A stretch of 14,940 bases of DNA, taken from a virus. Its lineage: Duplodnaviria > Heunggongvirae > Uroviricota > Caudoviricetes. The stretch covers positions 1-14,940 of IMG/VR virus record IMGVR_UViG_2875713109_000008. One strand, written 5' to 3'. Numbering within the stretch: the first letter of the stretch is position 1; every line of letters begins with the position of its first letter. A program made the position numbers and the translations under genes. Below are positions 1 to 14,940 of the stretch, one piece after another. The notes below the pieces were generated by a model. The model ran no database searches. It saw only the letters and a program-made list of their open reading frames with translations, and had not been told where the DNA came from.

Positions 1-735
1 TTACTCCCTGACAGGGTTCGTAGGCCACTCAATATCAGGTGCAGTTGTTGTATTAACACGGTTCAGCAACACCCGATACTTTTTCCAGGCTTCCAGCAAC
101 GAGTTTTCTTCCTCCGTTGCGATTTCCAGATCTGCAGCATCCTGAAGTGGCGCAATATGCTCACTGGCTACCTGCATCAGGTTGTTTTTTGTTTCTTCCG
201 CCTCCCGGATCCGGAACAGTTTTTCTGCTTCCGTATCCTTCACCCAGGCTGTGCCGTTCCACTTCTGATATTCCCCTTCCGGCGATAACCAGGTGACATT
301 TTCCGGTAACGAGCCAAGTTCAGAAATAAATAACGCGTCGCCGGAAGCCACGTCATAGACGGTTTTTCCCCGATGATCTTCAACGAGATGCCACGATGCC
401 TCATCACTGTTGAAAACAGCCACAAAGCCAGCCGGAATATCTGGCGGTGCAATATCGGTACTGTTTGCTGGCAGACCTGTATGAGGCGGAATATATGCGT
501 CACCTTCACCAATAAATTCATTAGTTCCGGCCAGCAGATTATAAATTTTTATGGTCCGTGGTTGTTCACTCATTCTGAATGCCANNNNNNNNNNNNNNNN
601 NNNNNCGGTACTGTTTGCTGGCAGACCTGTATGAGGCGGAATATATGCGTCACCTTCACCAATAAATTCATTAGTTCCGGCCAGCAGATTATAAATTTTT
701 ATGGTCCGTGGTTGTTCACTCATTCTGAATGCCAT
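1..735 (-). CDS. tfa: Tail fibre assembly protein Tfa (lambda orf-194 family); reading frame carries an in-frame 129-bp repeat plus 21 N
   Basis: Translation [43 protein letters not shown]... matches lambda Tfa from memory. ATG at 735-733 overlaps the stf stop (TAATG). Natural length is likely about 194 aa once the duplicated block is removed. Confidence 0.85.
456..734. repeat. 129-bp exact direct repeat (456-584 and 606-734) bridged by 21 N (585-605); period 150 bp
   Basis: Seen directly in the sequence; copies are identical and the unit keeps the tfa frame (X run in the translation). Confidence 0.9.
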
Positions 736-3700
736 TATGCAAGCCTCACAATATAGTTAAATGCGATGTTTTTGACGGTGTTTTCCGCGTTACCAGCAGC
801 GTTAACGGTGATGGTGTGTCCATGTGAACCAATCGCAACGGAGTGCGTATGAGCACCAATACCGACAGTATGCGCGTGTGCACCTGCAGATGCTGCTGTG
901 CNNNNNNNNNNNNNNNNNNNNNTGACGGTGTTTTCCGCGTTACCAGCAGCGTTAACGGTGATGGTGTGTCCATGTGAACCAATCGCAACGGAGTGCGTAT
1001 GAGCACCAATACCGACAGTATGCGCGTGTGCACCTGCAGATGCTGCTGTGCCGGACAGTGAGTGGCTATGATTACCATCTGTACTGGTATTAGCTAACCA
1101 CCCCGTAGACATACCTACTGAGCCTTGTACACCCCAGGTATTTTGACCTGAGCTTGTATAACCATATTGATAAGTATCTTTAAAAACACTGGGGTTAAAT
1201 CGACGGCCATCTCTATGGCTGTGATTACCAGCTGCATTCGTGCTGCCACTTAAACTATGGGTATGCGCACCAGTGTTATTCGTGGATTTAGTGCCGTAAT
1301 CAAACGACGATGTGGTTTTCGTCCCCAAATCCGTACTGGATGCGCTGGCGCTGTGGGTATGCGATTTAATGCCATCCTGTTCCTGAGACAATACGGCACG
1401 ACCACTGGCGGGCTTGCCCTTAATCGTCCAGCCACGCATATCAGGGATCACGCCTGACGGATAAGCGGCTGCAAGTTTCGGGTAAGCAGATTTGTCAAAA
1501 GTCTGCCCCTGCATCAGGGCATAACCAGACGGAACGGTATCTGATGGCCACGGGATTGGTGCGCCGACTGGGTAGCTTTCTGGTGGAAGATTTTTCGAGG
1601 TATAAACTTCTGCCCAGTCTTCCTCAAAACCATAACCGTCTCTTGAAGAACGGTAGAACAGACCACCATTTCTGTAATGCGCCTTCATCTGCAAGGTCCG
1701 GCAACTTCCGACTCCGGTATAGAAGTTAACCAGAATATAGCTGTCGCCAGAGCGGGTGACATTATAAGCGCCTGATTCGGCATTCCAGGGAACGCCACCA
1801 TCCGCATCGGCATATGTATCCGTTGCCCTTCTGGCAAAAGCAGCCACATGCGCGGCGGTTAAAGTAATATCTTTGGAACCATCAAACTCAACACCAGAAA
1901 CCCGTCTTGGCGTTTGCAGCTTTGTTGCTGTTAATGCATTACCGTTCAGACTTGCGGACAGTTTGGTTCCAATAACCAGTTCGCCGGTTGCGTTATCAAT
2001 AGCAAACGGTCTTAATGTATTCCAGCCACCATAAACATCACCTTGATTGGTAAGCAGCAGGTAAGTTTTAGCGCCATCATTACGCCATAATGCCCCATAC
2101 TCCCCACCTATCATTCGAATCTGATTACCACCACGCGCTACAATTTCGTCTGTGGCAAAAAGTTTTTTGCACGACAAGTTATCGTTAACGATTAACGAAT
2201 GAGACTCATAAAAACCACGCCCACTCTTAAAATCAAGGATAACGTCCGCCGCGATACATTCAGTCGCCGGATTTGTTGCCCCAAACTTATAGGTCGTATC
2301 ATTAACAACGAGATCAGCACCAGGTGTGGATATTGACAGGCCATCTTCGATAAACGCAAAAACAGGGAAAGCAGCGCCATCAACATAGAACACAGAGCGC
2401 AAATCATCGCCCTTATTACTCATCATTATTGAGTGGATGGCTCGTTCATTGTTTTGATATTGCCAGAACATTCCATAAGCATAACGCCCCCTGTCAGTCC
2501 AGCCACCAGGCATAACAAATCCGTTAAACTCGCAGTTATTCATCGGATCGCCTGCGGTTCGCGTTGCCGTGGTGATAATGACCCTTGATGCCAGTTCGCT
2601 TACTGAGCCAGCAGAACGCATAACAACAACAGGGTAATATTTTCCAGATGTTGCACCTGCAGGAGCGTTAACCCGCACATAACGCATACCACGCTTATCA
2701 GCAAAGTCTGTTTTACTGACCGCGTTAATGTTGTTCAGGAAGCGTCCCTTATCGGGTATATCAGCGCCGTTCTGGTCTTTCTGCAGACGTTTCTCTGCAT
2801 TGTCATAGGCTGATTTTACTGCCTTTGGCGTTGCCGCCAGCGTTTCAGACGTACTGTTGGTCGCACTGCTGAGCTGTACTATCCCCTTTTTCGTCGTACT
2901 TGCATCCTCAAGCGCCACGGCGGATGCAATATCCTCTGCCCGTTTTGCCGCTGTCTCGGCGCGCGTTGCCGCGGATTCCGCCGTACTTTTGCTCTGTGCT
3001 GCCGCCGTCGCACTGCCAGCTGCCTCTGTCGCCTTCGTGGATGCTGTCGTGGCGCTGCCCTTCGCTGCGGACGCTTGTCTGGTCGCCTCATCTTTTGAAG
3101 CAGACGCCGATGATGCCGATGACGCCGCCGAACTGGCGGACGATGCGGCAGCCGTTTTTGAGGATTCTGCGCTGGTTTCCGACGCTTTCGCGTTCGTCTC
3201 GGATGTCTTCGCTGCGGAAGCAGACCTCGCTGCTGCGCTGGCCTGTTCAGTGGCTTCGCCAGCCTTCGTTGTGGCTGTTGAAGCAGACGATGCGGCACTT
3301 TCTGCCGATTTTCCGGCGGCGGTGGCACTGGCTGAGGCCTGCCCGGCACTTGTTGACGCGGCACTGGCAGACGACGCAGCCGCTGTTTTTGAGCCTGCCG
3401 CAGCCGAGGCGCTCTGTCCCGCTGCCGTTTCAGAAGACCTGGCGTTTGTCTCAGACGTCTTTGCCGCCTTCGCGGAATTGCCTGCCGCCGTTGCCGAGGA
3501 AGCGGCACTACTGGCGCTTGATGATGCGTTCGTTTCTGATGATTTCGCTGCCTCTTTTGAGGCCGCCGCATCCCGGGCTGAGGTGGCTGCTTCTGACGCC
3601 TTCGTGGTCGCGGCGGATGCAGAAGTGGCTGCTGATTGTTGTGACGCTGCCGCATTCGTTTCTGACGTTTTCGCCGCAGCGGCACTGGTAGCTGCCGCGC

Positions 3701-4283
3701 TTTTTGAGGACTCTGCAGCAGCAGCACTTTTCGATGCTTCACTGGCCTTTGTTGATGCCGTTCCTGCGCTGGAAGATGCTGACTGAGCCGACGACGCGGC
3801 CTGTCCGGCTGACGTGCTGGCTGCGCGTGCTGAGCCTGCAGCATCGGTTGCATGAGTTGCCGCCTCACTGGCAGATGTGCTGGCATCACTGGCTGACTTC
3901 TTCGCGGCTGCCGTGTTCTGTGCCACTGCGGACGCGTTACGCGCCACCTCTTCCACCATCAGTTCAAAACGTCGCAATGCCTCCGGACGGGCATCATCCT
4001 CCGTCATGGCACCGAGAAAATCATTCAGCGTACCGGGTTGAGAATCTTCATACACGGTAATGGTCCCGGCATGTGACGGCGGGAATCCCTCCACCAACAG
4101 AATAACGCTGTACTGCCCGTACTCAACGTCCATGCTGTAACGCCCGGCTTCATCCGGATTTTCTGAGGCCAGCGTGTTCACCACCACCGTGGTGCTGTTA
4201 CGTTTTGCTTTCAGCTGGATTGTGCAGTTCTGTACCGGTTTTCCTGTGCCGTCTTTCAGTACACCTGAAATCTTTACTGCCAT
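735..4283 (-). CDS. stf: Side tail fibre protein Stf (lambda Stf-like N-terminus, long Ala/Ser/Thr-rich central region, His-rich HxH C-terminal repeats)
   Basis: N-terminus [30 protein letters not shown]... and C-terminus ...[12 protein letters not shown] match lambda Stf from memory. ATG at 4283 is preceded by GGGGTG; the ORF track starts at a GTG at 4289. Contains the second N-bridged repeat. Confidence 0.88.
773..1051. repeat. 129-bp exact direct repeat (773-901 and 923-1051) bridged by 21 N (902-922); period 150 bp
   Basis: Seen directly; same architecture as the repeat in tfa. It duplicates the His-rich segment near the Stf C-terminus. Confidence 0.9.
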
Positions 4284-4294
4284 ATTCACCCCAC

Positions 4295-4320
4295 AAAAAA
4301 GCCCGCCTGAACCGGCGGGC
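4295..4320 (-). terminator. Rho-independent terminator between lom and stf on the minus strand
   Basis: On the minus strand a GCCCGCC/GGCGGGC hairpin (6-nt loop) is followed by TTTTTT, just upstream of the stf ribosome-binding site. Confidence 0.55.
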
Positions 4321-4347
4321 TGTCATAACACTGTGTTACCTGGCTAA

Positions 4348-4693
4348 TCAGAATTTATAACCGACACCCACGATGAAACCGTCAGTGCGCCAGTCACCAC
4401 TGCCGGAGCCTTCATAAGCAATATCAATGGCCACGGATTCGGTCGGGTTAAACTGCACGCCAGCCCCCCACGCCAGAGACGTGTTGCTGTGGCGACCGTC
4501 ATCACTTCCGGTCAGCACATCGTGCTTTTTCCCCTTGTTGTCAGTTACGCGAAGATAATCCCCGGAGAAAGTCGACACACGGCTGTAAGCTACACCCGCC
4601 ATCGCATACGCGCTGAACCATTCATTCACGCGCACAGACGGCCCCGCCATTACGCTGAACCAGCGGTTACGAACGGAATCTTCATGCCAGCGG
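4348..4693 (-). pseudogene. lom: 5'-truncated lom (Ail/Lom/PagC-family outer-membrane protein); only about the C-terminal 115 codons remain
   Basis: Translation ...RWHEDSVRNRWFSVMAGPSVRVNEWFSAYAMAGVAYSRV...GFIVGVGYKF matches the Lom C-terminus from memory. The frame stays open upstream but runs into cos-like sequence at about 4693, with no signal peptide or plausible start. Confidence 0.8.
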
Positions 4694-4890
4694 GTAACCT
4701 GTCGGATCGCCGGAAAGGACCCGCAAAATGATAATAATTATCATCTACATGTCACAACGTGCATCTACGCCATCAAACCACGTCAAATAATCAATTATGA
4801 CGCAGGTATCGTATTAATTGATCTGCATCAACTTAACGTAAAAACAACTTCAGACAATACAAATCAGCGACACTGAATACGGGGCAACCT
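4694..4890. other. Lambda right-end (cos-proximal) homologous region, reverse-complemented; homology stops at the cosN right terminus
   Basis: Minus strand reads ...GATCCGACAGGTTAC then lom sequence. Lambda's right end is recalled as ...GATCCGACAGGTTACG, and the downstream window sequence is collinear with the lambda right arm through bor. Confidence 0.6.
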
Positions 4891-4891
4891 C

Positions 4892-5086
4892 ATGTCAACG
4901 AAGAACAGAACCCGCAGAACAACAACCCGCAACATCCGCTTTCCTAACCAAATGATTGAACAAATTAACATCGCTCTTGAGCAAAAAGGGTCCGGGAATT
5001 TCTCAGCCTGGGTCATTGAAGCCTGCCGTCGGAGACTAACGTCAGAAAAGAGAGCATATACATCAATTAAAAGTGATGAAGAATGA
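4892..5086 (+). CDS. Small basic hypothetical protein (64 aa; Arg/Thr-rich N-terminus), conserved lambda right-end ORF (recalled as YlcI/DUF3950-like)
   Basis: ORF MSTKNRTRRTTTRNIRFPNQ... with a GGGG-rich region upstream of the ATG; position matches the lambda/DLP12 right-end gene set. Confidence 0.5.
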   Translation: MSTKNRTRRTTTRNIRFPNQMIEQINIALEQKGSGNFSAWVIEACRRRLTSEKRAYTSIKSDEE

Positions 5087-5250
5087 ACATCCCGCGTTCT
5101 TCCCTCCGAACAGGACGATATTGTAAATTCACTTAATTACGAGGGCATTGCAGTAATTGAGTTGCAGTTTTACCACTTTCCTGACAGTGACAGACTGCGT
5201 GTTGGCTCTGTCACAGGCTAAATAGTTTGAATGATTAGCAGTTATGGTGA

Positions 5251-5457
5251 TCAGTCAACCACCAGGGAATAATCCTTCATATTATTATCGTGCTTCACCA
5301 ACGCTGCCTCAATTGCTCTGAATGCTTCCAGAGACACCTTATGTTCTATACATGCAATTACAACATCAGGGTAACTCATAGAAATGGTGCTATTAAGCAT
5401 ATTTTTTACACGAATCAGATCCACGGAGGGATCATCAGCAGATTGTTCTTTATTCAT
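5251..5457 (-). CDS. Hypothetical protein, 68 aa (lambda p79 / YbcW-like)
   Basis: ORF of 68 aa at the position and size expected for the conserved small gene between bor and cos in lambda-like phages. Confidence 0.55.
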
Positions 5458-5742
5458 TTTGTCGCTCCATGCGCTTGCTCTTCATCTAGCGGTTAAAATA
5501 TTACTTCAAATCTTTCTGTATGAAGATTTGAGCACGTTGGCCTTACATACATCTGTCGGTTGTATTTCCCTCCAGAATGCCAGCAGGACCGCACTTTGTT
5601 ACGCAACCAATACTATTAAGTGAAAACATTCCTAATATTTGACATAAATCATCAACAAAACACAAAGAGGTCAGACCAGATTGAAACGATAAAAACGATA
5701 ATGCAAACTACGCGCCCTCGTATCACATGGAAGGTTTTACCA

Positions 5743-6153
5743 ATGGCTCAGGTTGCCATTTTTAAAGAAATATTCGATCAAGTGCGAAAAGATTTAAACT
5801 GTGAATTGTTTTATTCTGAACTAAAACGTCACAACGTCTCACATTATATTTACTATCTAGCCACAGATAATATTCACATCGTGTTAGAAAACGATAACAC
5901 CGTGTTAATAAAAGGACTTAAAAAGGTTGTAAATGTTAAATTCTCAAGAAACACGCATCTTATAGAAACGTCCTATGATAGGTTGAAATCAAGAGAAATC
6001 ACATTTCAGCAATACAGGGAAAATCTTGCTAAAGCAGGAGTTTTCCGATGGGTTACAAATATCCATGAACATAAAAGATATTACTATACCTTTGATAATT
6101 CATTACTATTTACTGAGAGCATTCAGAACACTACACAAATCTTTCCACGCTAA
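5743..6153 (+). CDS. Hypothetical protein (lambda p78 / YbcV-like); the longest ORF starts at a GTG at 5620
   Basis: ATG at 5743 is preceded by GGAAGG at suitable spacing and gives 136 aa; the 177-aa ORF from 5620 has no ribosome-binding site. Confidence 0.55.
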
Positions 6154-6443
6154 ATCATAACGTCCGGTTTCTTCCGTGTCAGCACCGGGGCGTTGGCATA
6201 ATGCAATACGTGTACGCGCTAAACCCTGTGTGCATCGTTTTTAATTATTCCCGGACACTCCCGCAGAGAAGTTCCCCGTCAGGGCTGTGGACATAGTTAA
6301 TCCGGGAATACAATGACGATTCATCGCACCTGACATACATTAATAAATATTAACAATATGAAATTTCAACTCATTGTTTAGGGTTTGTTTAATTTTCTAC
6401 ACATACGATTCTGCGAACTTCAAAAAGCATCGGGAATAACACC

Positions 6444-6737
6444 ATGAAAAAAATGCTACTCGCTACTGCGCTGGCCCTGCTTATTACAGGATGTGCTCAA
6501 CAGACGTTTACTGTTCAAAACAAACCGGCAGCAGTAGCACCAAAGGAAACCATCACCCATCATTTCTTCGTTTCTGGAATTGGGCAGAAGAAAACTGTCG
6601 ATGCAGCCAAAATTTGTGGCGGCGCAGAAAATGTTGTTAAAACAGAAACCCAGCAAACATTCGTAAATGGATTGCTCGGTTTTATTACTTTAGGCATTTA
6701 TACTCCGCTGGAAGCGCGTGTGTATTGCTCACAATAA
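6444..6737 (+). CDS. bor: Bor lipoprotein (serum-resistance-associated outer-membrane lipoprotein)
   Basis: 97 aa with lipobox LLITGC; MKKMLLATALALLITGCAQQTFTVQNKPAAVAPKE... matches lambda Bor from memory. Convergent with Rz as in lambda. Confidence 0.93.
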   Translation: MKKMLLATALALLITGCAQQTFTVQNKPAAVAPKETITHHFFVSGIGQKKTVDAAKICGGAENVVKTETQQTFVNGLLGFITLGIYTPLEARVYCSQ

Positions 6738-6743
6738 TTGCAT

Positions 6744-6769
6744 GAGTTGCCCATCGATATGGGCAACTC
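6744..6769. terminator. Perfect 26-bp palindrome (GAGTTGCCCATCGATATGGGCAACTC) between convergent Rz and bor; likely bidirectional terminator
   Basis: Seen directly: 11-bp arms around a CGAT core, overlapping the Rz stop codon. Confidence 0.45.
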
Positions 6770-6827
6770 TATCTGCACTGCTCATTAATATACTTCTGGG
6801 TTCCTTCCAGTTGTTTTTGCATAGTGA

Positions 6828-7144
6828 TCAGCCTCTCTCTGAGGGTGAAATAATCCCGTTCAGCGGTGTCTGCCAGTCGGGGGGAGGCTGCATTATCCAC
6901 GCCGGAGGCGGTGGTGGCTTCACGCACTGACTGACAGACTGCTTTGATGTGCAACCGACGACGACCAGCGGCAACATCATCACGCAGAGCCGTTCAGCGG
7001 TGTCTGCCAGTCGGGGGGAGGCTGCATTATCCACGCCGGAGGCGGTGGTGGCTTCACGCACTGACTGACAGACTGCTTTGATGTGCAACCGACGACGACC
7101 AGCGGCAACATCATCACGCAGAGCATCATTTTCAGCTTTAGCAT
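6828..7144 (-). pseudogene. Rz1: Rz1 o-spanin lipoprotein embedded in Rz; native frame is also broken by the 134-bp duplication
   Basis: Rz1 start MLKLKMM... is encoded at 7144-7124 and the Rz1 C-terminus ...[10 protein letters not shown] ends at 6828. The extra 134 bp (not a multiple of 3) separates them in frame. Confidence 0.6.
6857..7124. repeat. 134-bp exact tandem direct duplication (6857-6990 and 6991-7124), no N spacer
   Basis: Seen directly; the two copies are identical and adjoin head to tail inside Rz/Rz1. Confidence 0.9.
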
Positions 7145-7360
7145 CAGCTAACTCCTTCGTGTATTTTGCATCGAGCGCAGCAACATCACGCTGACGCATC
7201 TGCATGTCAGTAATTGCCGCGTTCGCCAGCTTCAGTTCTCTGGCATTTTTGTCGCGCTGGGCTTTGTAGGTAATGGCGTTATCACGGTAATGATTAACAG
7301 CCCATGACAGGCAGACGATGATGCAGATAACCAGAGCGGAGATAATCGCGGTTACTCTGT

Positions 7361-7858
7361 TCATTGCTGACCCCACAAACAGATTTCACGCTCAATCTCA
7401 CGACGAGTCATGAGACCTTTCCATTGCTTACCGCCAGCATATGTCCAGCGACGTAGCTGATCACATGCGCCTTTGATATCGCCCTGGTTTATTTTGCGAA
7501 GAAGCGTCGATGTTCTGAAATTGCCAGCACCCACGTTGTAAACGAATGAGTAAAGAGCGCCGCGCGTTGTTTCCGGTATATCGACTTTGATGTACGGGTT
7601 AATTTGTCTGGCGACAGTGGCAAGGTCTTTATTCAAGAGTGCTTTGCATTCTGCTTTGGTATACGTTTTACCGAGCATGATGTCTTTTCCGGTGTGTCCG
7701 TGACATACAGTCCATACGCCAACGATATCTTTGTATGGTACGTAGCTGACACCTTCCAGACCATCGTTACCACTTGGGCCAGTGATTAACACAGATGCTA
7801 TGGCAATAGCCCCGCCACCAATAGCAGCAGCAACGGCTTTTCGTAATGATGGAGGCAT
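7361..7858 (-). CDS. R: SAR endolysin, phage 21 R-type (T4-lysozyme-like muramidase with Gly/Ala-rich N-terminal signal-arrest-release segment)
   Basis: 165 aa, [44 protein letters not shown]...; start overlaps the S stop (TAATG). Confidence 0.9.
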
Positions 7859-8073
7859 TATTCACCTCTCGCAGCCTTGCGCTTATCTTCTTTAATCTTG
7901 AAATAAAGGTTTGTCAGATACGTCAGCAGGCCAAACACCAGACTACCCAGCACACCTATTGCCGCCCACTGTGAGGGCGTGACTTTATCGAGCAACTGTA
8001 AAAACCAGTACCCGGCACTACCTGCTGAGGTGCCATAGGCGACACCCGTTGTTAACTTATCCATGGATTTCAT
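7858..8073 (-). CDS. S: Pinholin, phage 21 S-type (71 aa, dual-start MKSM motif)
   Basis: [71 protein letters not shown]; GAGGTGGGG ribosome-binding site before the ATG at 8073. The ORF track's longer N-terminus has no ribosome-binding site. Confidence 0.88.
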
Positions 8074-8112
8074 AACCCCACCTCGCAGATGCGGGTGCTG
8101 TGTAATGGAAAT

Positions 8113-8135
8113 AAAAAGGCCACCTGACGTGGCCA
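8113..8135 (-). terminator. Rho-independent terminator right after the methyltransferase stop and before S
   Basis: On the minus strand a GGCCAC/GTGGCC hairpin (5-nt loop) is followed by TTTTTATTT. Confidence 0.55.
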
Positions 8136-8140
8136 CCAGA

Positions 8141-9193
8141 TTATTTCCCCACCAGCTCGTTTATCTCTTTCACTGTCTGGTTAAACCGCTCTGACTCAAG
8201 CTCAACACCTAAGGCCCGACGCCCCAGCGCCATTGCTGCTTTTATTGTGGAACCGGATCCCATAAAAAAATCAGCAACCAGATCACCAGGTCGACTACTG
8301 GCATTGATTATTTGCCTGAGCATATCCGCCGGTTTCTCACACGGATGTTTACCCGGGTAGAACTGAACGGGTTTATGCATCCAGACATCGGTATAAGGCA
8401 CGGAGACTGATACGGAGAAATAGCGCCGGAGAGATTTAAACTCATCCAGCAATTCAGAATATTTGCGATTCAGTGAATCATAAGATGCCACCAGCTGGTG
8501 GTGTGGTTGTTCCAGTTGTTGTTCCTGAAACTTCTCTGCCGCTATACGGGAAAACAGTGCCTGTAACTTCCGATAGTCAGCCTCATTCGGCAACTGCCAC
8601 TGACTGGCACCAAACCAGTGGGAAACCATATTTTTCTTACCTGTGGCTTCGGCAATTTGTTTTGCCGTTATACCCAGTTCGGCACGAGCATCCCTGAAAT
8701 ACGATATCAGCGGTGCCATTATGTGCTGTTTGAGTTCCCTTTCTTTTGCCGCATAGCCGTCACTTTTGCCGCGATATGGCCCCTGGTAATGTTCAGCAAA
8801 CAGAACGCGCTCTGTGGCAGGAAAATATGCGCGCAGACTTTCTTTATTACACCCATTCCAACGTCCGGACGGCTTCGCCCAGATGATATGGTTAAGCACG
8901 TTGAAACGTTCACGCATCATGATCTCAATATCAGATGCCAGGCGATGCCCACAGAACAGGTAAAGGCTTCCGGCAGGTTTCAACACCCGCCAGAACTGGG
9001 CCAGACAGTGGTCCAGCCACTTAAGGTAATCTTCGTCCCCTTTCCACTGATTGTCCCAACCGTTGGGTTTCACCTTGAAGTACGGCGGATCGGTAACAAT
9101 CAGGTCAATGGAATCATCAGGCAGGGACTGAATAAAATGCAGGCAATCAGCGTTGATTAAATCAACACTGTTTATTTTTACAGTATTTTTCAT
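8141..9193 (-). CDS. DNA methyltransferase, beta-class N6-adenine/N4-cytosine type (motif IV DPPY precedes motif I FxGxG); no restriction partner visible
   Basis: 350 aa with VTDPPYF near the N-terminus and FFMGSGST near the C-terminus. The start at 9193 has no clear ribosome-binding site. Confidence 0.82.
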
Positions 9194-9342
9194 GGATCAG
9201 TAAGCGTAACTCTGGTAGGCTCACTCTGCTTTTGCGCTAAAGCAGTGGGCCGTGGTTCGCTTGTGACCAGTAAGCATGAGCGAATGGCTGGCAGGTGCTA
9301 CCAACACCCACCAGCCGCCCATTTTCACAAATTAAAAGTCCT

Positions 9343-9561
9343 TCATAGCTGAAGGCGTCTGTAACAGCCGAACTGGTAATCTGCCAGCCCCGCCATAACC
9401 AACTGGGTCAGTATTAACTGACAGCGTTCGCGTGAAAGATATGTGTTTTGTGCAATCTCCCCGACTGTTGCCGGTTCGATGCTTAATTCATTAAAAACAA
9501 CTTTCGCCGTTTCTGTCATATCTTGCTGTTTTAACATGTCTTTTTTCCTTCTGGTTAACAT
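9343..9561 (-). CDS. Small hypothetical protein (72 aa), possibly helix-turn-helix-like
   Basis: ORF only; segment ATVGEIAQNTYLSRERCQLILTQLVMAGL resembles a DNA-binding helix pair. No clear ribosome-binding site, so start is uncertain. Confidence 0.35.
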   Translation of the reverse strand: MLTRRKKDMLKQQDMTETAKVVFNELSIEPATVGEIAQNTYLSRERCQLILTQLVMAGLADYQFGCYRRLQL

Positions 9562-9658
9562 GACATACCAATAACTCTTGTCTAAAAAGCCAGCAAGATA
9601 AAAAGTCAGTATTCACGACCACCAGCGTGTTTACCGTACTGCACCAGGTTTACAGGTA

Positions 9659-9685
9659 CAAAAAAACCCGCTCGACGGCGGGTTT
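9659..9685 (-). terminator. Strong rho-independent terminator on the late (minus) strand downstream of the antisense side of the OLD-like gene
   Basis: On the minus strand a CCCGC/GCGGG hairpin is followed by seven T; on the plus strand it is preceded by an A-tract, so it could act in both directions. Confidence 0.6.
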
Positions 9686-9788
9686 AAGTTGTGTGGCGAA
9701 GTAACCACTCTTGAGAGCATATCTGATTATTTACGATTGTAAATAATATATTCCCCCCCAATAATTAGATTGAGAAAACATTACCATA

Positions 9789-9817
9789 TTGATAATAAGG
9801 CAATTGACATAATTATA
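9789..9817 (+). promoter_or_regulatory. Candidate sigma70 promoter for the OLD-like gene (TTGATA, 17-bp spacer, ATTATA) in AT-rich leader
   Basis: Hexamers seen by eye in the AT-rich region; many alternatives exist there, so this is tentative. Confidence 0.25.
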
Positions 9818-9950
9818 AAAATCATTCTTGGTTGATTTTAAAACAACAAATGCACGATATTTACCCAATCATTGATGAATACATCTCTAAATGTTATAAA
9901 TTTATTGTTTTTCTAAAGATAACTCTCATTCATATCAGGAAAGATAAAAA

Positions 9951-11402
9951 ATGTCAGACATAAAAAATATACTAAAATGCATGTACTTTGATAAAAATAG
10001 ATACTCAAACTTTGGCTCCGTAATTAAAAGTCTAGAGATAAATGGATTTCGAGGAATAAAAAAACTAACATTAAATATAAATTTTCCGGTAACTGCAATA
10101 TCAGGGCTAAACGGCGCTGGGAAAAGCACTCTTGGGCAGTTAGCAATATGCGCATATAAAAAACCAGTTACAGCCCGTGAATATAAGAGATTATATATTA
10201 AAGATTTTTTCCCTGTATCTAAAGCCGATCCAGCCCCTTTCGATAATGACGCCAGTGTCATTTATAAATATGAAACAAATGATTCAACGAAAACACAAGA
10301 TGTGACTGTCACTCGCATAAAGTCTTCTTGGTCTGGATATAAAAGACAACCAGAAAGACACTGTTTTTACATTGGTTTTACTGTCTATATTCCAAAAGTA
10401 GAACGTAGAGATATAAGTGTTTATGGCGGTAAAGACTTTGATTTAACAGAGAGAAGAAGCGTCGACCATTCAGTAATATTGAAGATGGCAAAAATAATAG
10501 GTCATCCATATGATGATATCGCATTCCAAGGAATTTCTCATAGAGCACGTCGTTCAGAAATTGGTATTGTTGAAAGACTTGGGTATTCTTATTCTGAAAA
10601 TAACATGGGGTTTGGCGAAGGAAGAGTTCTTTATACGGTTGATATGCTTGAAACAGCTCCAGAGCAAAGTCTTTTCGTACTAGAAGAACCAGAAACATCT
10701 CTTCATGAAAGCGCACAGTATGAATTTGCAAAATATTTAATGGAAGTATGTCAACGTAGAAAACATCAAATAATATTATCAACACACTCAAGTGTGATAT
10801 TAAATGCTTTACCTCCTGATGCACGAAAATTACTTATTAGAGATCAGACTGGTGTCTATATCAAAGATGGAATTTCAACAACTCATGTGAGATCAATACT
10901 GTCTGATGGGCAGTTTAAAGGGCTGCATATTTGCGTAGAAGACCAGTTTGCAAAAGTTTTACTTAGTGAAGTAATTAGAGCAAAGCGGAGAGACATTCTT
11001 AAATCCATTCAAATCACTGATATTGGAGATAAAGATGCAGTCCGACAAGCAGTCGAGGTATTCAAGAAAGCAGGCCTTAATGTTATTGCCGTAAGAGATG
11101 CAGATGTTGGAGAAAACATTAAAGATGATTTATTTTCTTTCCCTGGCAATAGGCCACCAGAAGTAGAAGTATTTCAACATGAGGAAGTAAAAAAATTCCT
11201 CTACAAGGAGTATCATATTGATTTTGATTGGTTAATAAAAAAGGAAGGGATTAGTGATCATCACAATTACACTCAAGCAATTGCTAAAGAAGCAGAATGT
11301 GAGGAGGAAGTAATTAGAACTTTAGCAATTAAAAAATATATTGAAATTATTGATGAGAAATTTGACCCACTTATTACAAATATAGTAAGCAAAATAAAAT
11401 AA
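9951..11402 (+). CDS. OLD-family-like protein: N-terminal ABC-type ATPase fused to C-terminal TOPRIM-like domain; candidate defence or superinfection-exclusion nuclease
   Basis: 483 aa. Walker A GLNGAGKST (nt 10104-10130), Walker B LFVLEEPETSLH (from nt 10671), H-loop ILSTHSS, then ICVEDQ (Glu) and IAVRDADVGE (DxD) TOPRIM-like motifs. AGGAAA ribosome-binding site before ATG. Opposite strand to the flanking phage genes and much more AT-rich than them. Confidence 0.6.
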   Translation: MSDIKNILKCMYFDKNRYSNFGSVIKSLEINGFRGIKKLTLNINFPVTAISGLNGAGKSTLGQLAICAYKKPVTAREYKRLYIKDFFPVSKADPAPFDNDASVIYKYETNDSTKTQDVTVTRIKSSWSGYKRQPERHCFYIGFTVYIPKVERRDISVYGGKDFDLTERRSVDHSVILKMAKIIGHPYDDIAFQGISHRARRSEIGIVERLGYSYSENNMGFGEGRVLYTVDMLETAPEQSLFVLEEPETSLHESAQYEFAKYLMEVCQRRKHQIILSTHSSVILNALPPDARKLLIRDQTGVYIKDGISTTHVRSILSDGQFKGLHICVEDQFAKVLLSEVIRAKRRDILKSIQITDIGDKDAVRQAVEVFKKAGLNVIAVRDADVGENIKDDLFSFPGNRPPEVEVFQHEEVKKFLYKEYHIDFDWLIKKEGISDHHNYTQAIAKEAECEEEVIRTLAIKKYIEIIDEKFDPLITNIVSKIK

Positions 11403-11412
11403 CAAACCAGCA

Positions 11413-11447
11413 GGCGCTAATTACTAAAAACCTTGTACATTAGCGCC
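11413..11447. terminator. 9-bp perfect inverted repeat (GGCGCTAAT / ATTAGCGCC, 17-nt loop) between the convergent OLD-like gene and Q; candidate tR'-like or convergent terminator
   Basis: Seen directly; on the minus strand a T-rich tract follows (TGGTTTGTTATTTTATTTT); on the plus strand the U-tract is weak. Confidence 0.4.
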
Positions 11448-11574
11448 ACCCTCAAATAAATCAGTGGTTATTAAATCCCCACAAAAACATTAATATAAAG
11501 CACAAACAGTCCACCCTCCTTAATTTCATGCTAACAATACAAATTAAAAATCCAGATACTCATAAAATATCTTT

Positions 11575-11946
11575 CTAGATATTTGAGTCCATTTCCAATT
11601 CTATTTCTAACATTATCAACATACCTTCAATGATGCCTTCTGCCTTTTGCAATAAGCGCCCAACCCAGCAATCAGAACGCCCATGTTTACGGGCAAGCGC
11701 CATAAACGTCATACCACCTACATAATAATCTACTAATAAATCGTGCAAATCGCTGTTGTTCTTTTTCAGACGGGCCATGCACCCGCAAATGATCATCGCG
11801 TCATCGTCACAACATTGCGGGCGGGATTTTACTTTTGAAGGAAGTAATCCCTTAAAACCGGCAGCAATGGACGACCAGGTCACATCCTCATGATTATTAG
11901 CCGCCCATGCCCCCCAACGTTCAAGAACCATTTGAATATCACGCAT
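11575..11946 (-). CDS. Q: Late-gene antiterminator Q, phage 21/82 (QuuD-like) family
   Basis: [62 protein letters not shown]... with a cysteine-rich zinc-binding-like motif. GGAGG ribosome-binding site before ATG at 11946; an alternative upstream ATG at 11961 has none. Confidence 0.8.
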
Positions 11947-12091
11947 CAACTTCCTCCACAAAATCAGGCCAGCACGCCTATTGCCAACACACGGTCGATA
12001 AAACGAAATATCAGCTCCAGCTGGGAGCCATACTTCTCTTCAAATGCCACGGTATCCATTTTTCAACAATGTCACAGCAAGAGGTGAAATA

Positions 12092-12442
12092 ATGGAGCCA
12101 TACAGCCTCACACTCGATGAGGCCTGTCATTTTCTCAAGATATCCAGACCGACTGCCATTAACTGGATACGCACAGGGCGTCTTCAGGCAACACGCAAAG
12201 ATCCCACTAAGAATAAATCTCCTTACCTCACAACACGACAAGCCTGCATTGCGGCTCTTCAGTCTCCGCTGCATACTGTCCAGGTGAGCGCGGGTGATGG
12301 CATAACAGAGGAAAGAAAATGTCACTCTTCCGCAGAGGTGAAATATGGTACGCCAGTTTCACATTGCCGAACGGTAAAAGATTTAAACAGTCTCTTGGAA
12401 CAAAGGACAAAAGGCAGGCGACAGAACTCCATGACAAGCTAA
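12092..12442 (+). CDS. xis: Excisionase Xis, P22 type (116 aa)
   Basis: [38 protein letters not shown]... with GAGGTG ribosome-binding site; overlaps int by 124 bp. Confidence 0.8.
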
Positions 12443-13482
12443 AGGCTGAAGCATGGCGGGTCAGCAAACTTGGTGAAATACCTGATATAACGTTCGAGGA
12501 AGCGTGTGTCAGGTGGCTTGAAGAGAAAGCACATAAAAAATCACTGGACGATGACAAAAGCCGGATCGGATTCTGGCTTCAACATTTCGCAGGAATGCAA
12601 CTAAGAGACATTACTGAATCAAAAATTTATTCAGCAATGCAGAAAATGACGAACCGGCGTCATGAGGAAAACTGGAGACTCAGGGCAGAAGCATGCAGAA
12701 AAAAAGGGAAACCTGTTCCAGAATACACGCCAAAACCAGCGTCCGTTGCAACGAAGGCTACGCATCTTTCATTTATAAAGGCCCTACTAAGAGCCGCAGA
12801 GCGTGAATGGAAAATGCTGGATAAGGCACCAATTATTAAAGTGCCTCAACCAAAGAATAAACGGATCCGCTGGCTGGAGCCCCATGAAGCACAAAGGCTG
12901 ATTGATGAATGTCCGGAGCCATTAAAGTCTGTTGTTGAATTTGCACTGGCAACAGGCTTAAGACGCTCGAACATCATCAACCTTGAATGGCAACAAATAG
13001 ACATGCAGCGCCGGGTGGCATGGATAAACCCGGAAGAGAGTAAATCAAACCGCGCAATTGGCGTTGCGCTGAATGATACTGCATGTCGCGTTTTGAAAAA
13101 ACAAATCGGGAATCATCACCGTTGGGTATTTGTGTACAAGGAAAGCTGTACCAAACCAGACGGAACGAAAGCGCCAACAGTAAGGAAGATGCGGTATGAC
13201 GCAAACACAGCCTGGAAAGCGGCGCTGAGACGGGCTGGTATTGATGATTTCAGATTTCACGACTTGAGACACACCTGGGCAAGTTGGCTGGTTCAAGCCG
13301 GAGTCCCGTTGTCAGTGTTACAGGAAATGGGAGGCTGGGAGTCTATCGAAATGGTTCGTCGATATGCTCACCTTGCACCTAATCACCTTACCGAACACGC
13401 ACGGCAAATAGACTCGATCCTGAACCCATCGGTCCCAAATTTGTCCCAGTCAAAAAATAAGGAAGGTACTAATGATGTGTAA
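12319..13482 (+). CDS. int: Tyrosine integrase, P22 Int type (thrW-specific)
   Basis: 387 aa, [48 protein letters not shown]... with C-terminal catalytic region [10 protein letters not shown]...VRRYAHL; ends 14 nt from the tRNA-Thr 3' end. Confidence 0.95.
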
Positions 13483-13496
13483 CTTATTGATTTTAA

Positions 13497-13572
13497 TGGT
13501 GCCGATAATAGGAGTCGAACCTACGACCTTCGCATTACGAATGCGCTGCTCTACCAACTGAGCTATATCGGC
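13497..13572 (-). tRNA. thrW: tRNA-Thr (anticodon CGU)
   Basis: Minus strand GCCGATATAGCTCAGTTGGTAGAGCAGCGCATTCGTAATGCGAAGGTCGTAGGTTCGACTCCTATTATCGGCACCA folds as a cloverleaf with CGT in the anticodon loop and a CCA end. Confidence 0.9.
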
Positions 13573-13686
13573 CCTGAAAGGACATGTTCACGAACGTGAA
13601 TCACGGTGGACAAGGTTAAAACTAACCGGGCGATGCGTCAATGGCCTTGTGAATCAAATGGCTACTTTTGCATCACCCGGTTTTAT

Positions 13687-14940
13687 TTACGCACGAATGG
13701 TGTAATCACCAATGCCGATCCACTTGTAAGTGGTCAGTGCTTCCAGCCCCATTGGGCCACGCGCGTGGAGTTTTTGTGTGCTTACCGCCACTTCCGCACC
13801 CAGACCAAACTGGCCGCCGTCGGTAAAACGCGTAGAGGCGTTAACGTAAACAGCGGACGAATCCACTTCGTTAACAAAACGCTGGGCGTTGCGCATATCG
13901 CGGGTCAGGATCGCATCGGAGTGTTGTGTGCCGTGTTCACGAATATGGGCGATGGCATCGTCAAGATCGCTGACGATTTTGACGTTCAAATCTAATGACA
14001 GAAACTCATCGTCATACTCTTCGGCTTTAACAGCAACCACCTTCGCAGGGCCTGCCTGCAACTGCGCCAGTGCAGCTGCATCTGCGTGTAATGTCACGCC
14101 GCTTTCCGCCATTTGTTTGCTTAATGCGGGCAGGAAGCTATCGGCGATGTTTTTATTCACCAGCAACGTTTCAACCGTATTACATGTGCTCGGACGCTGA
14201 GTTTTCGCGTTGACGATCACTTTTAATGCTTCAGCGATCTCTACACTTTCATCAACGTAAATATGGCATACGCCTATACCACCTGTGATCACCGGGATTG
14301 TCGACTGTTCACGGCACAGTTTATGCAAACCAGCGCCACCACGCGGGATCAGCATGTCGATGTATTTATCCATACGCAGCATTTCACTGACCAGCGCACG
14401 GTCAGGATTATCAATCGCCTGCACGGCACCCGCCGGTAAGCCGCAGGATTTCAGGGCGTCCTGAATCACCGCCACCGTTGCAGCGTTAGTGCGACACGTT
14501 TCTTTGCCACCGCGCAGGATCACCGCATTACCGGTTTTCAGGCACAGCGAAGCGACATCAACCGTCACGTTCGGGCGCGCTTCATAAATCACGCCAATAA
14601 CCCCCAGCGGTACGCGACGACGCTCAAGACGCAGGCCGCTGTCCAGTACGCTGCCATCGATTACCTGCCCCACCGGATCGGCGAGGTTACACACCTGGCG
14701 CACATCATCGGCAATGCCTTTCAGCCGTGCGGGCGTCAGTGCCAGACGGTCAAGCATCGCTTCGCCAAGGCCATTGGCACGCGCGTCAGCAACATCCTGG
14801 GCGTTAGCGTTGAGGATGATTTCGCTTTGTGCTTCCAGTTCATCGGCGATTTTTTCCAGCACGCGATTTTTTTCGCGGCTGGAGAGTTGCGCTAATTTAT
14901 ACGAGGCTTGCTTCGCGGCAATGCCCATTTGTTCCAGCAT
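13687..14940 (-). CDS. proA: Gamma-glutamyl phosphate reductase (proline biosynthesis)
   Basis: Complete 417-aa [53 protein letters not shown]...; aldehyde dehydrogenase-like fold; start codon at the window's last base. Confidence 0.96.

Follow-up and report, generated by a model that had tools for sequence, protein, structure and literature searches.

An M.EcoGII-family adenine methyltransferase gene is linked to a small winged-helix gene and a conserved structured RNA leader in temperate phages

How a temperate phage can carry a methyltransferase that modifies DNA indiscriminately, and what the phage may gain from it, is the question raised by a cassette between the Q antiterminator and lysis genes of a lambdoid prophage. 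The cassette was analysed in a stretch of 14,940 nucleotides (nt) of IMG/VR virus record IMGVR_UViG_2875713109_000008 (positions 1 to 14,940; hereafter the window). Its methyltransferase gene (8141-9193, minus strand, ATG start) encodes 350 amino acids (aa) and belongs to the M.EcoGII family of beta-class N6-adenine DNA (and RNA) methyltransferases; the enzyme is predicted by homology to be non-specific. M.EcoGII itself is in wide use as a tool for mapping (chromatin, RNA and proximity methylation), and its expression is notoriously toxic. No description of its natural control elements was found in the papers examined.

The methyltransferase gene was found to be one part of a conserved triad. 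In the direction of transcription, this self-contained cassette of the late operon consists of a terminator, a promoter-like block, the gene for a 64-aa winged-helix protein, a small hairpin, a structured RNA leader of about 135 nt and the methyltransferase gene, followed by a second terminator and the lysis genes. The methyltransferase family is already known; the novelty sits instead in the regulatory architecture, and the added value of the analysis is the triad, above all an RNA motif without a counterpart in Rfam. We read the cassette as a Mom-like, late-expressed and tightly gated anti-restriction hypermethylation module, a reading to which a probability of about 0.7 was assigned.

The RNA leader of the methyltransferase gene

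The interval between the small gene and the methyltransferase gene was overlooked in the first-pass annotation of the window, which was made from the sequence alone. It contains a conserved structured RNA of about 135 nt (9194-9329, minus strand; covariance-model match 9185-9329), built from a long hairpin (P1), a second hairpin (P3) and a long-range helix (P2), the 3' strand of which (..GCUU..UGAUC) ends 1-2 nt short of the methyltransferase AUG. The spacer from the winged-helix gene to the methyltransferase gene measured 142-154 nt in 19 species-level loci ranging from Escherichia to Proteus, Providencia and Plesiomonas, and 149 nt in the window. Of the 14 loci that belong to Enterobacteriaceae genera, 13 had a spacer with higher nucleotide conservation than either of the coding sequences beside it; in the five loci at the greatest distance (Proteus, Providencia and Plesiomonas) the spacer and the coding sequences were conserved about equally.

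Conservation of the RNA structure was evident from several measures. The fold z-score of the window leader was -3.4. When 20 sequences were aligned with plain MAFFT, 88.8% of the cells paired in the three-helix structure, compared to 28-42% when the partners were slid. In the same alignment 13 pairs were changed on both sides, versus 4-8 in the slid controls, a value attained by one of 500 shuffles, and the covariation score was 0.171 versus 0.03-0.09; as with all of the covariation counts for the leader, a small number of deep splits account for many of these changes, the structure itself came from the very sequences that were scored, and the statistics ignore kinship.

A covariance model, R1, was built on this 20-sequence alignment. 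Each locus searched with R1 gave a single significant copy, located without exception 5' of the methyltransferase operon. Among 13 distant phages with the methyltransferase, a match directly 5' of the operon was obtained in 12, at 25.7-104 bits: N15, phiKO2, PY54, Kpn74, PhiR46_1, Hafnia phage yong2, Morganella phage IME1369_02, the Vibrio phages VHML, ST2-1pr and Valp1, and the Aeromonas phages phiARM81ld and PhAER-1. The P2-like phage phiO18P was the sole member of this set from which the leader was missing. Compensatory change was seen in 31 of 41 pairs when 16 diverse leaders were aligned by fitting to the model. De novo prediction with RNAalifold on an unfitted alignment of 18 diverse leaders regained P1 and the base of P3, with compensatory change in 11 of 20 pairs.

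Neither the window (9185-9342) nor the leader regions of six relatives gave an Rfam 15 match at E ≤ 1. A description of the small open reading frame (ORF) or of the leader was not found in the literature, in a search that was incomplete, so that novelty is unproven; the RNA appears to be new and adds a candidate family to the catalogue. Unpaired nucleotides in its junctions and loops (AAUGGGCG, AAGGCCCA and GAGCCUA) were invariant across distant lineages.

No Shine-Dalgarno sequence precedes the methyltransferase gene of the window. In every case the leader ends, on its 3' side, directly at the start codon of the operon's first ORF. In most lambdoid, Vibrio and Aeromonas members, the region from -14 to +3 was predicted to be less accessible than with shuffled leaders. 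From these fold predictions it is plausible that the leader simply occludes the start site, and this would not be universal. Immediately 5' of the RNA, N15 and phiKO2 carry their annotated late promoter with its terminator; the RNA in these phages is the leader of the whole late operon.

Three other interpretations of features in the leader were considered and rejected. A pseudoknot between the P1 loop (UUGGUAG) and a CUACCA junction is perfect in the window; other lineages vary the loop and keep the junction, and the pseudoknot was therefore dropped. The leader is not a small coding ORF, given that one-nucleotide indels separate close relatives and that substitutions track base pairing rather than codons. 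The sequence TGTGAAAAT at the 5' edge of the leader, taken as an extended -10 promoter, was inconsistent across lineages.

A side result concerns phage N15 (locus L109, AF064539; 1870-2235), in which the alignment of the methyltransferase protein and the end of the leader both indicate an ATG at locus position 2001. By this comparison, N15 gene 52 probably begins 234 nt upstream of its annotated start (record position 41621).

The winged-helix gene and proposed control of the cassette

The small gene (9343-9537, minus strand) encodes a protein of PHROG 331 that carries the NCBI name "TrmB family transcriptional regulator". It had been described in the first-pass annotation as a 72-aa ORF with a helix-turn-helix-like segment; its existence was borne out, as was a winged-helix fold, and its length was not. 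A Shine-Dalgarno sequence and the ATG at 9537 are kept in all relatives and the ATG at 9561 is missing from most, a conserved start that makes 9537 the probable true start and the protein one of 64 rather than 72 aa. Amino-acid identity exceeded nucleotide identity in relatives with at least 70% aa identity, and the ORF is thus a genuine coding sequence under purifying selection. The AlphaFold2 model (mean pLDDT of 92, pLDDT being the predicted local distance difference test score) consists of helices at residues 9-16, 25-32 and 36-48 and a beta-hairpin wing at 52-61. Helix 3 (..RCQLILTQLVMAGLA..) is almost invariant, and identity over the remainder of the protein falls to 40-50%.

Assignment of this protein to a described regulator class was not supported. 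Pfam matches were below the curated cut-offs (TrmB, 16.4 bits with a cut-off of 25.6; DprA_WH, 17.2 with a cut-off of 22.9), and the protein is a bare winged-helix domain, lacking the above-threshold domain and the dimerisation and effector regions that define regulators of the TrmB/MarR type. Foldseek searches with the model returned generic matches, all at E > 1e-3 and none diagnostic (N-terminal domains of O-methyltransferases, MarR, IclR and the SelB RNA-binding domain). The zinc ribbon of Mu Com was not found in the small ORF of the window, which has just two cysteines, no match to PF10122 and a winged-helix fold. Nor was there an Xre or HTH_3 match in the ORF, or a palindromic repeat seen in the block upstream of it, as would be expected of a controller (C) protein. 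The family is narrow, with 61 representatives at 50% clustering, several of which are fragments or low-complexity artefacts; the long repeat proteins P0129, P0152 and P0167 were rejected as relatives on the latter ground.

The homology search for this ORF, which the first-pass annotation had recommended, revealed that the gene is tightly linked to the methyltransferase. When one genome per species was scanned, 22 loci with the winged-helix gene were obtained, and the methyltransferase gene was found downstream at a fixed distance in 20 of them, that is, in all 20 informative loci; the other two were a deletion remnant and a contig end. Among IMG/VR loci in which the methyltransferase and leader are 99-100% identical (L006-L085), two alleles of the small gene were present, one of 64 aa as in the window and one of 67 aa, 51% identical to it, as in phage Ayreon, and the mosaic or recombination joint between them lies right behind the stop codon. 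Remote homologues were located 5' of the methyltransferase in the Hafnia and Morganella phages and in N15, phiKO2, PY54 and PhiR46_1 (gp51, annotated as winged helix-turn-helix). An Escherichia albertii locus (L087) carries an allele 95% identical to M.EcoGII in the same winged-helix, leader and methyltransferase cassette. Separately, two contigs labelled Bacillus sp. MAG (metagenome-assembled genome; L086) and Chryseobacterium sp. (L095) contained an enterobacterial-type cassette with 79-94% identical proteins, which probably reflects assembly contamination or mis-binning.

In four Aeromonas and Vibrio phages (L108, L113, L114 and L118) a Com-like zinc-ribbon ORF of 36-71 aa, with the motif ELRCxxC...IKCxRCK, is placed between the leader and the methyltransferase gene, its AUG within the 3' part of the RNA; the ORF of L108, in which PF10122 was scanned for, matched it, and the other three were recognised by the zinc-ribbon motif. 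The ORF is annotated as "translational regulator Com-like protein" in KT898133 and as "hypothetical" in Valp1, and is unannotated in PhAER-1 and ST2-1pr. Control by genes resembling com has a precedent among non-specific adenine methyltransferases of a different enzyme family, which take the mom position in Mu-like prophages (PMC3299994). The methyltransferase travels, across lambdoid, N15-like, Vibrio and Aeromonas phages, with the winged-helix protein and the conserved RNA, and in some of them with a Com-like protein too.

The cassette is framed by intrinsic terminators, in agreement with its earlier placement in a terminator-bracketed slot on the late strand between Q and S. The terminator scan identified a hairpin (AAACCCGCC..GGCGGGTTT) followed by a T run at the upstream edge (9664-9685, minus strand) and a second (GGCCACGTCAGGTGGCC then TTTTTATTT) at the downstream edge (8118-8134, minus strand), and it called 10 sites in the region compared to 3.5 expected from shuffles. 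A terminator occupies the upstream position in all aligned genera and is annotated there in phages SfV and Ayreon; at the downstream position one is annotated likewise in SfV, Ayreon, N15 and phiKO2. The scan also detected a small hairpin across the stop codon of the small ORF, followed by a U-rich tract (9340-9355, minus strand), which is possibly a weak terminator or attenuator. Relatives have equivalent stop-codon hairpins of differing sequence, and in N15 and phiKO2 a strong terminator is found there, just 5' of the leader. The methyltransferase gene stands directly 5' of the holin gene in lambdoid, N15-like, Vibrio and Aeromonas phages.

Upstream of the small gene is a promoter-like block (9561-9597, minus strand) composed of TTGCTG (9596-9591), a 17-nt spacer, TATTGG (9573-9568) and then TATGTCA. 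The pattern TTGCTG-N17-TAT(C/T)(T/G)G-TATGTCA is kept from E. coli to Proteus, Providencia and Plesiomonas, and RNAalifold predicted zero RNA base pairs within it. The block matches the sigma-70 consensus at six of 12 positions and was not called by a sigma-70 scan. The late promoter annotated in N15 and phiKO2 (TTGGCA-17-TATCTT) has a similar layout. The block is a candidate for a weak promoter of the cassette, for an operator or for something else. Considered as a moron, the cassette presents terminators on either side and, upstream, a block with weak sigma-70 resemblance.

The leader RNA probably controls the first ORF of the methyltransferase operon, with a helix that would partly cover the region just 5' of the start codon, and this control may involve the winged-helix protein in the window and the Com-like zinc-ribbon protein in the Aeromonas and Vibrio relatives. 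A more specific proposal is offered tentatively and is, in our estimate, fairly unlikely to hold as a whole: that the leader represents a new class of cis-regulatory RNA gating a toxic non-specific methyltransferase, and that the winged-helix protein acts on it in trans as an RNA-binding translational activator in place of Mu Com. If this were true, the leader and the protein would form a common "safety catch" on genome hypermethylation for temperate phages of several lineages.

The winged-helix protein might instead be a DNA-binding, controller-like regulator that represses or activates the promoter-like block, the leader being a separate element or one that serves only stability or processing. 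The fold of the protein is what such a regulator would be expected to have, MarR and IclR regulators are among its structural neighbours, and it is encoded just 3' of the conserved promoter-like block; in N15 and phiKO2, moreover, the gp51 homologue is directly upstream of the annotated late promoter. However, the block shows no evident inverted or direct repeat that could serve as an operator, the protein is not basic, its Pfam matches are sub-threshold, and two alleles that are only 51% identical precede an identical leader and methyltransferase. Such a role is an appreciable possibility, though on balance it is not the expected one.

A different account of the RNA is that it is a metabolite-sensing riboswitch (for S-adenosylmethionine, S-adenosylhomocysteine or a nucleotide, for example) or the autoregulatory binding site of the methyltransferase itself, and not the target of the small protein. 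Invariant unpaired nucleotides such as those in the junctions and loops of the leader are typical of ligand-binding and protein-binding RNAs, the leader is present without the winged-helix gene in the Aeromonas phages and VHML, and M.EcoGII is known to bind and methylate RNA (PMC5778455). The leader has no similarity to any Rfam riboswitch, however, and an expression platform holding in all lineages could not be defined, which leaves this account an unlikely one.

Specificity of the methyltransferase and the anti-restriction reading

The identity of the methyltransferase was established at several levels. Residues 29-341 matched PF01555 (N6_N4_Mtase) at E 2e-42. The motif DPPY (aa 35-38; nt 9091-9080) precedes FMGSG (FxGxG; aa 310-314; nt 8266-8252), and this placement of motif IV N-terminal to motif I is the order of the beta class; the closest solved structures were the beta-class adenine methyltransferases RsrI, MboIIA and CcrM, with a split alignment that agrees with the same order. 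The earlier description of a 350-aa DPPY-type beta-class enzyme was thus confirmed, as was its orphan status: no cognate restriction endonuclease adjoins the gene, the neighbours of which are the 64-aa winged-helix ORF and the holin, and the arrangement is not that of a Type II restriction-modification system. Methyltransferases 98-100% identical to that of the window are annotated in phages cdtI (100%), mEp460, Ayreon and SfV (orf48), and Stx2c phages have an 85% identical version.

Compared to M.EcoGII, the window enzyme is 81% identical (281 of 349 residues) and colinear over its full length with two gaps, the recognition domain (residues ~160-237) included and residue 179 being Q in both, as judged from an M.EcoGII sequence that was machine-read from the supplement of PMC11551740 and may contain a few reading errors. 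Its identity to Anc291, a reconstructed ancestor that was active when assayed on DNA and RNA (PMC11551740, Tables S1 and S3), is 89%. M.EcoGII methylates adenine in any context; it is prophage-borne, unexpressed in the lysogen and harmful once expressed (PMC5778455, PMC12707154). All three assayed members of the family, M.EcoGII, PhiOS31_p25 and ARM81ld_p56, are reported to be non-specific (PMC5778455; PMC7556043). ARM81ld_p56 is 53% identical to the window enzyme, and L24 of phage phiP27 is 83% identical to the window enzyme and 67% to PhiOS31_p25. Since the assayed relatives bracket the window enzyme, we infer that it would methylate the N6 position of adenine in essentially any sequence context.

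The model implicit in the first-pass annotation was that of an ordinary sequence-specific orphan, either Dam-like or left over from a restriction-modification system, which modifies one motif. Database names are consistent with it: PADLOC (class MTase_II) and NCBIfam gave generic matches to "Type II methyltransferase" or "adenine-specific DNA-methyltransferase", and some RefSeq copies are named "site-specific DNA-methyltransferase". The NCBIfam matches were far under the cut-off (110 versus 292 bits), the 81% identity to M.EcoGII extends through the target-recognition region, and the assayed members, at 53-81% relatedness, all lack specificity (PMC5778455, PMC7556043). A sequence-specific enzyme is thus very improbable. 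Searching for a modified motif, which had been suggested as a test with absence of a motif as the refuting outcome, is ill-posed for this family, because it is non-specific, no motif is expected and silence in lysogens has been reported; motif-based methylome screens will miss a methyltransferase of the M.EcoGII type. Annotation should be corrected to "non-specific" in place of "site-specific" for the enzyme, to 64 aa for the small ORF and, probably, at the start of N15 gene 52.

Under the reading of the cassette as a gated anti-restriction module, late lytic expression in an inducible carrier phage would lead to hypermethylated progeny DNA, which would resist many adenine-methylation-sensitive restriction systems in the next host. 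Since indiscriminate methylation harms the cell, the gene is expected to be gated. From the anatomy of the cassette, transcription would have to cross terminators and would therefore need RNA polymerase modified by Q, and the leader would add a further level of control. This offers a concrete model of how phages could deploy indiscriminate DNA methylation without killing the lysogen. An anti-restriction function had also been suggested in the first-pass annotation, and it agrees with the proposal made for the family in the literature (PMC5778455, PMC12707154).

Several points weigh against this reading. The non-specific activity of the exact window protein is deduced from homology. The anti-restriction role is a proposal for the family, for which protection of plasmid DNA from restriction enzymes has been shown (PMC5778455, PMC12707154). 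P2 was not regained de novo in the most diverse alignment, and its support is confined to the Enterobacterales set. The predicted occlusion of the start region was modest, giving partial support only, and N15-like members showed none. Net charges of -4 to +4 make the winged-helix protein near-neutral or acidic, and its fold matches are generic (E > 1e-3), so that nucleic-acid binding is putative and not established by the model; in addition, a winged-helix homologue was not found upstream in the Aeromonas phages or VHML, in which the leader is present. The window prophage is itself a lambdoid deletion remnant at thrW, with int-xis abutting Q and without early, head or tail genes, and in this remnant useful expression of the cassette may never occur.

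The closest parallel in design is the com-mom operon of phage Mu, which likewise encodes a late, host-damaging and broadly anti-restriction DNA modifier behind a small regulator gene and a structured mRNA near the start codon; a true Com-like zinc-ribbon gene is present, moreover, in the Aeromonas and Vibrio relatives of the cassette. Mom is not a methyltransferase, its product being N6-carbamoylmethyl or acetamido-adenine. Here, in contrast, the small protein is a winged helix without the Cys4 zinc site, and the RNA, at about 135 nt with three helices, is far larger; in relatives that have a com-like gene, the RNA is positioned upstream of this regulator gene. By analogy, the logic of the cassette would match that of com-mom, with different components. 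A small helix-turn-helix gene just 5' of a DNA-modification gene also recalls the C proteins of restriction-modification systems and suggests timing control. Those proteins are of the Xre type with five helices, bind C-box palindromes and accompany a restriction enzyme, whereas this cassette has a winged-helix fold, no restriction gene and no C-box-like repeat that could be seen. Like the insertions between Q and S of lambdoid phages (stx and bor-type morons), the cassette is an extra, non-essential and terminator-bracketed unit amid late genes, beside a variable-cargo slot. Classical morons are expressed from the prophage, in contrast to the M.EcoGII-family methyltransferase, which is reported to be silent in lysogens.

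Among the methyltransferases themselves, Hin1523, Nma1821 and Hia5 (Drozdz et al. 2012, PMC3299994) are phage-encoded, non-specific for adenine and found in the mom position under a com-like gene, and thereby share the functional idea of the cassette; they differ from the window enzyme in sequence family ("quite distinct", PMC5778455) and in phage type. The closest described counterpart is M.EcoGII (and M.EcoGI) of E. coli O104:H4 C227-11, likewise a beta-class PF01555 enzyme of 349-350 aa, prophage-borne and 81% identical. About 19% of residues differ, and an upstream small gene and leader RNA were not described in the M.EcoGII papers examined.

The OLD-like neighbour and the prophage setting

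Outside the cassette, an OLD-like ABC-ATPase gene (9951-11402, plus strand; RefSeq name "ATP-dependent nuclease") was identified as a candidate defence gene by PADLOC (HEC-04, E 4e-47; ATPase-Toprim_I-B). Between Q and the cassette there is a hot spot for cargo genes: this slot holds a GIY-YIG gene in phiP27 and two unrelated hypothetical ORFs in Ayreon. Coupling of the OLD-like gene to the methyltransferase, raised as speculation in the first-pass annotation, was contradicted by their distribution: of the 85 loci in which the methyltransferase was truncated or 98-100% identical, only three carried the OLD-like gene, and it occurred in none of the 22 species-level loci. The contrast in strand and composition noted earlier was upheld, the OLD-like gene being on the opposite strand with a GC content of 0.30-0.36 versus about 0.48. 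Although the two genes are about 750 base pairs apart in the window and several E. coli prophages share the arrangement at 98.7% identity, a toxin-immunity or restriction-modification-like pair, in which the methyltransferase shields the host or prophage from the OLD-like nuclease, was rejected as next to negligible on these co-occurrence counts, on the strand and composition contrast, on the different occupants of the slot, and because the methyltransferase family is silent in lysogens, where a defence gene needs to be expressed.

The remainder of the window is in keeping with integration at thrW. The proA gene (13687-14940, minus strand) is followed by a tRNA-Thr gene (13497-13572) and the integrase gene (12319-13482, plus strand), with an HTH_17 excisionase-like ORF (12044-12442, plus strand). 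The phage-82-type Q antiterminator gene (11575-11961, minus strand; PF06530) starts only 83 nt from this integrase/excisionase-like pair, the entire early region being gone. This arrangement of int-xis beside Q was absent from 5,426 complete E. coli genomes at a coverage of at least 80%. The next late gene after the cassette encodes a phage-21-type holin with a dual start (MKSM...; 7858-8073, minus strand; PF04971), and past it the genes for a signal-anchor-release (SAR) endolysin, Rz, Bor and a DUF1398 protein lead directly to the tail-fibre genes.

Three further observations were made outside the cassette. The interval that separates the end of Q from the OLD-like gene's 3' end contains a long hairpin (GGCGCTAAT...ATTAGCGCC) followed by a U-rich run (11415-11460, minus strand), which may be a tR'-type or bidirectional terminator that was overlooked by the simple scan. 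Positions 44-242 (minus strand), within the tail-fibre-assembly region at the window's left end, gave a full-length match to the Rfam small RNA IS009 (226 bits; gathering score 117). Within the gene for a 1184-aa tail-fibre protein (735-4289, minus strand), a part within 2750-4250 differs from the rest of the window in its GC content (~0.6-0.64) and in a strong negative AT skew, and weak, sub-threshold isrG matches fall inside this high-GC part.

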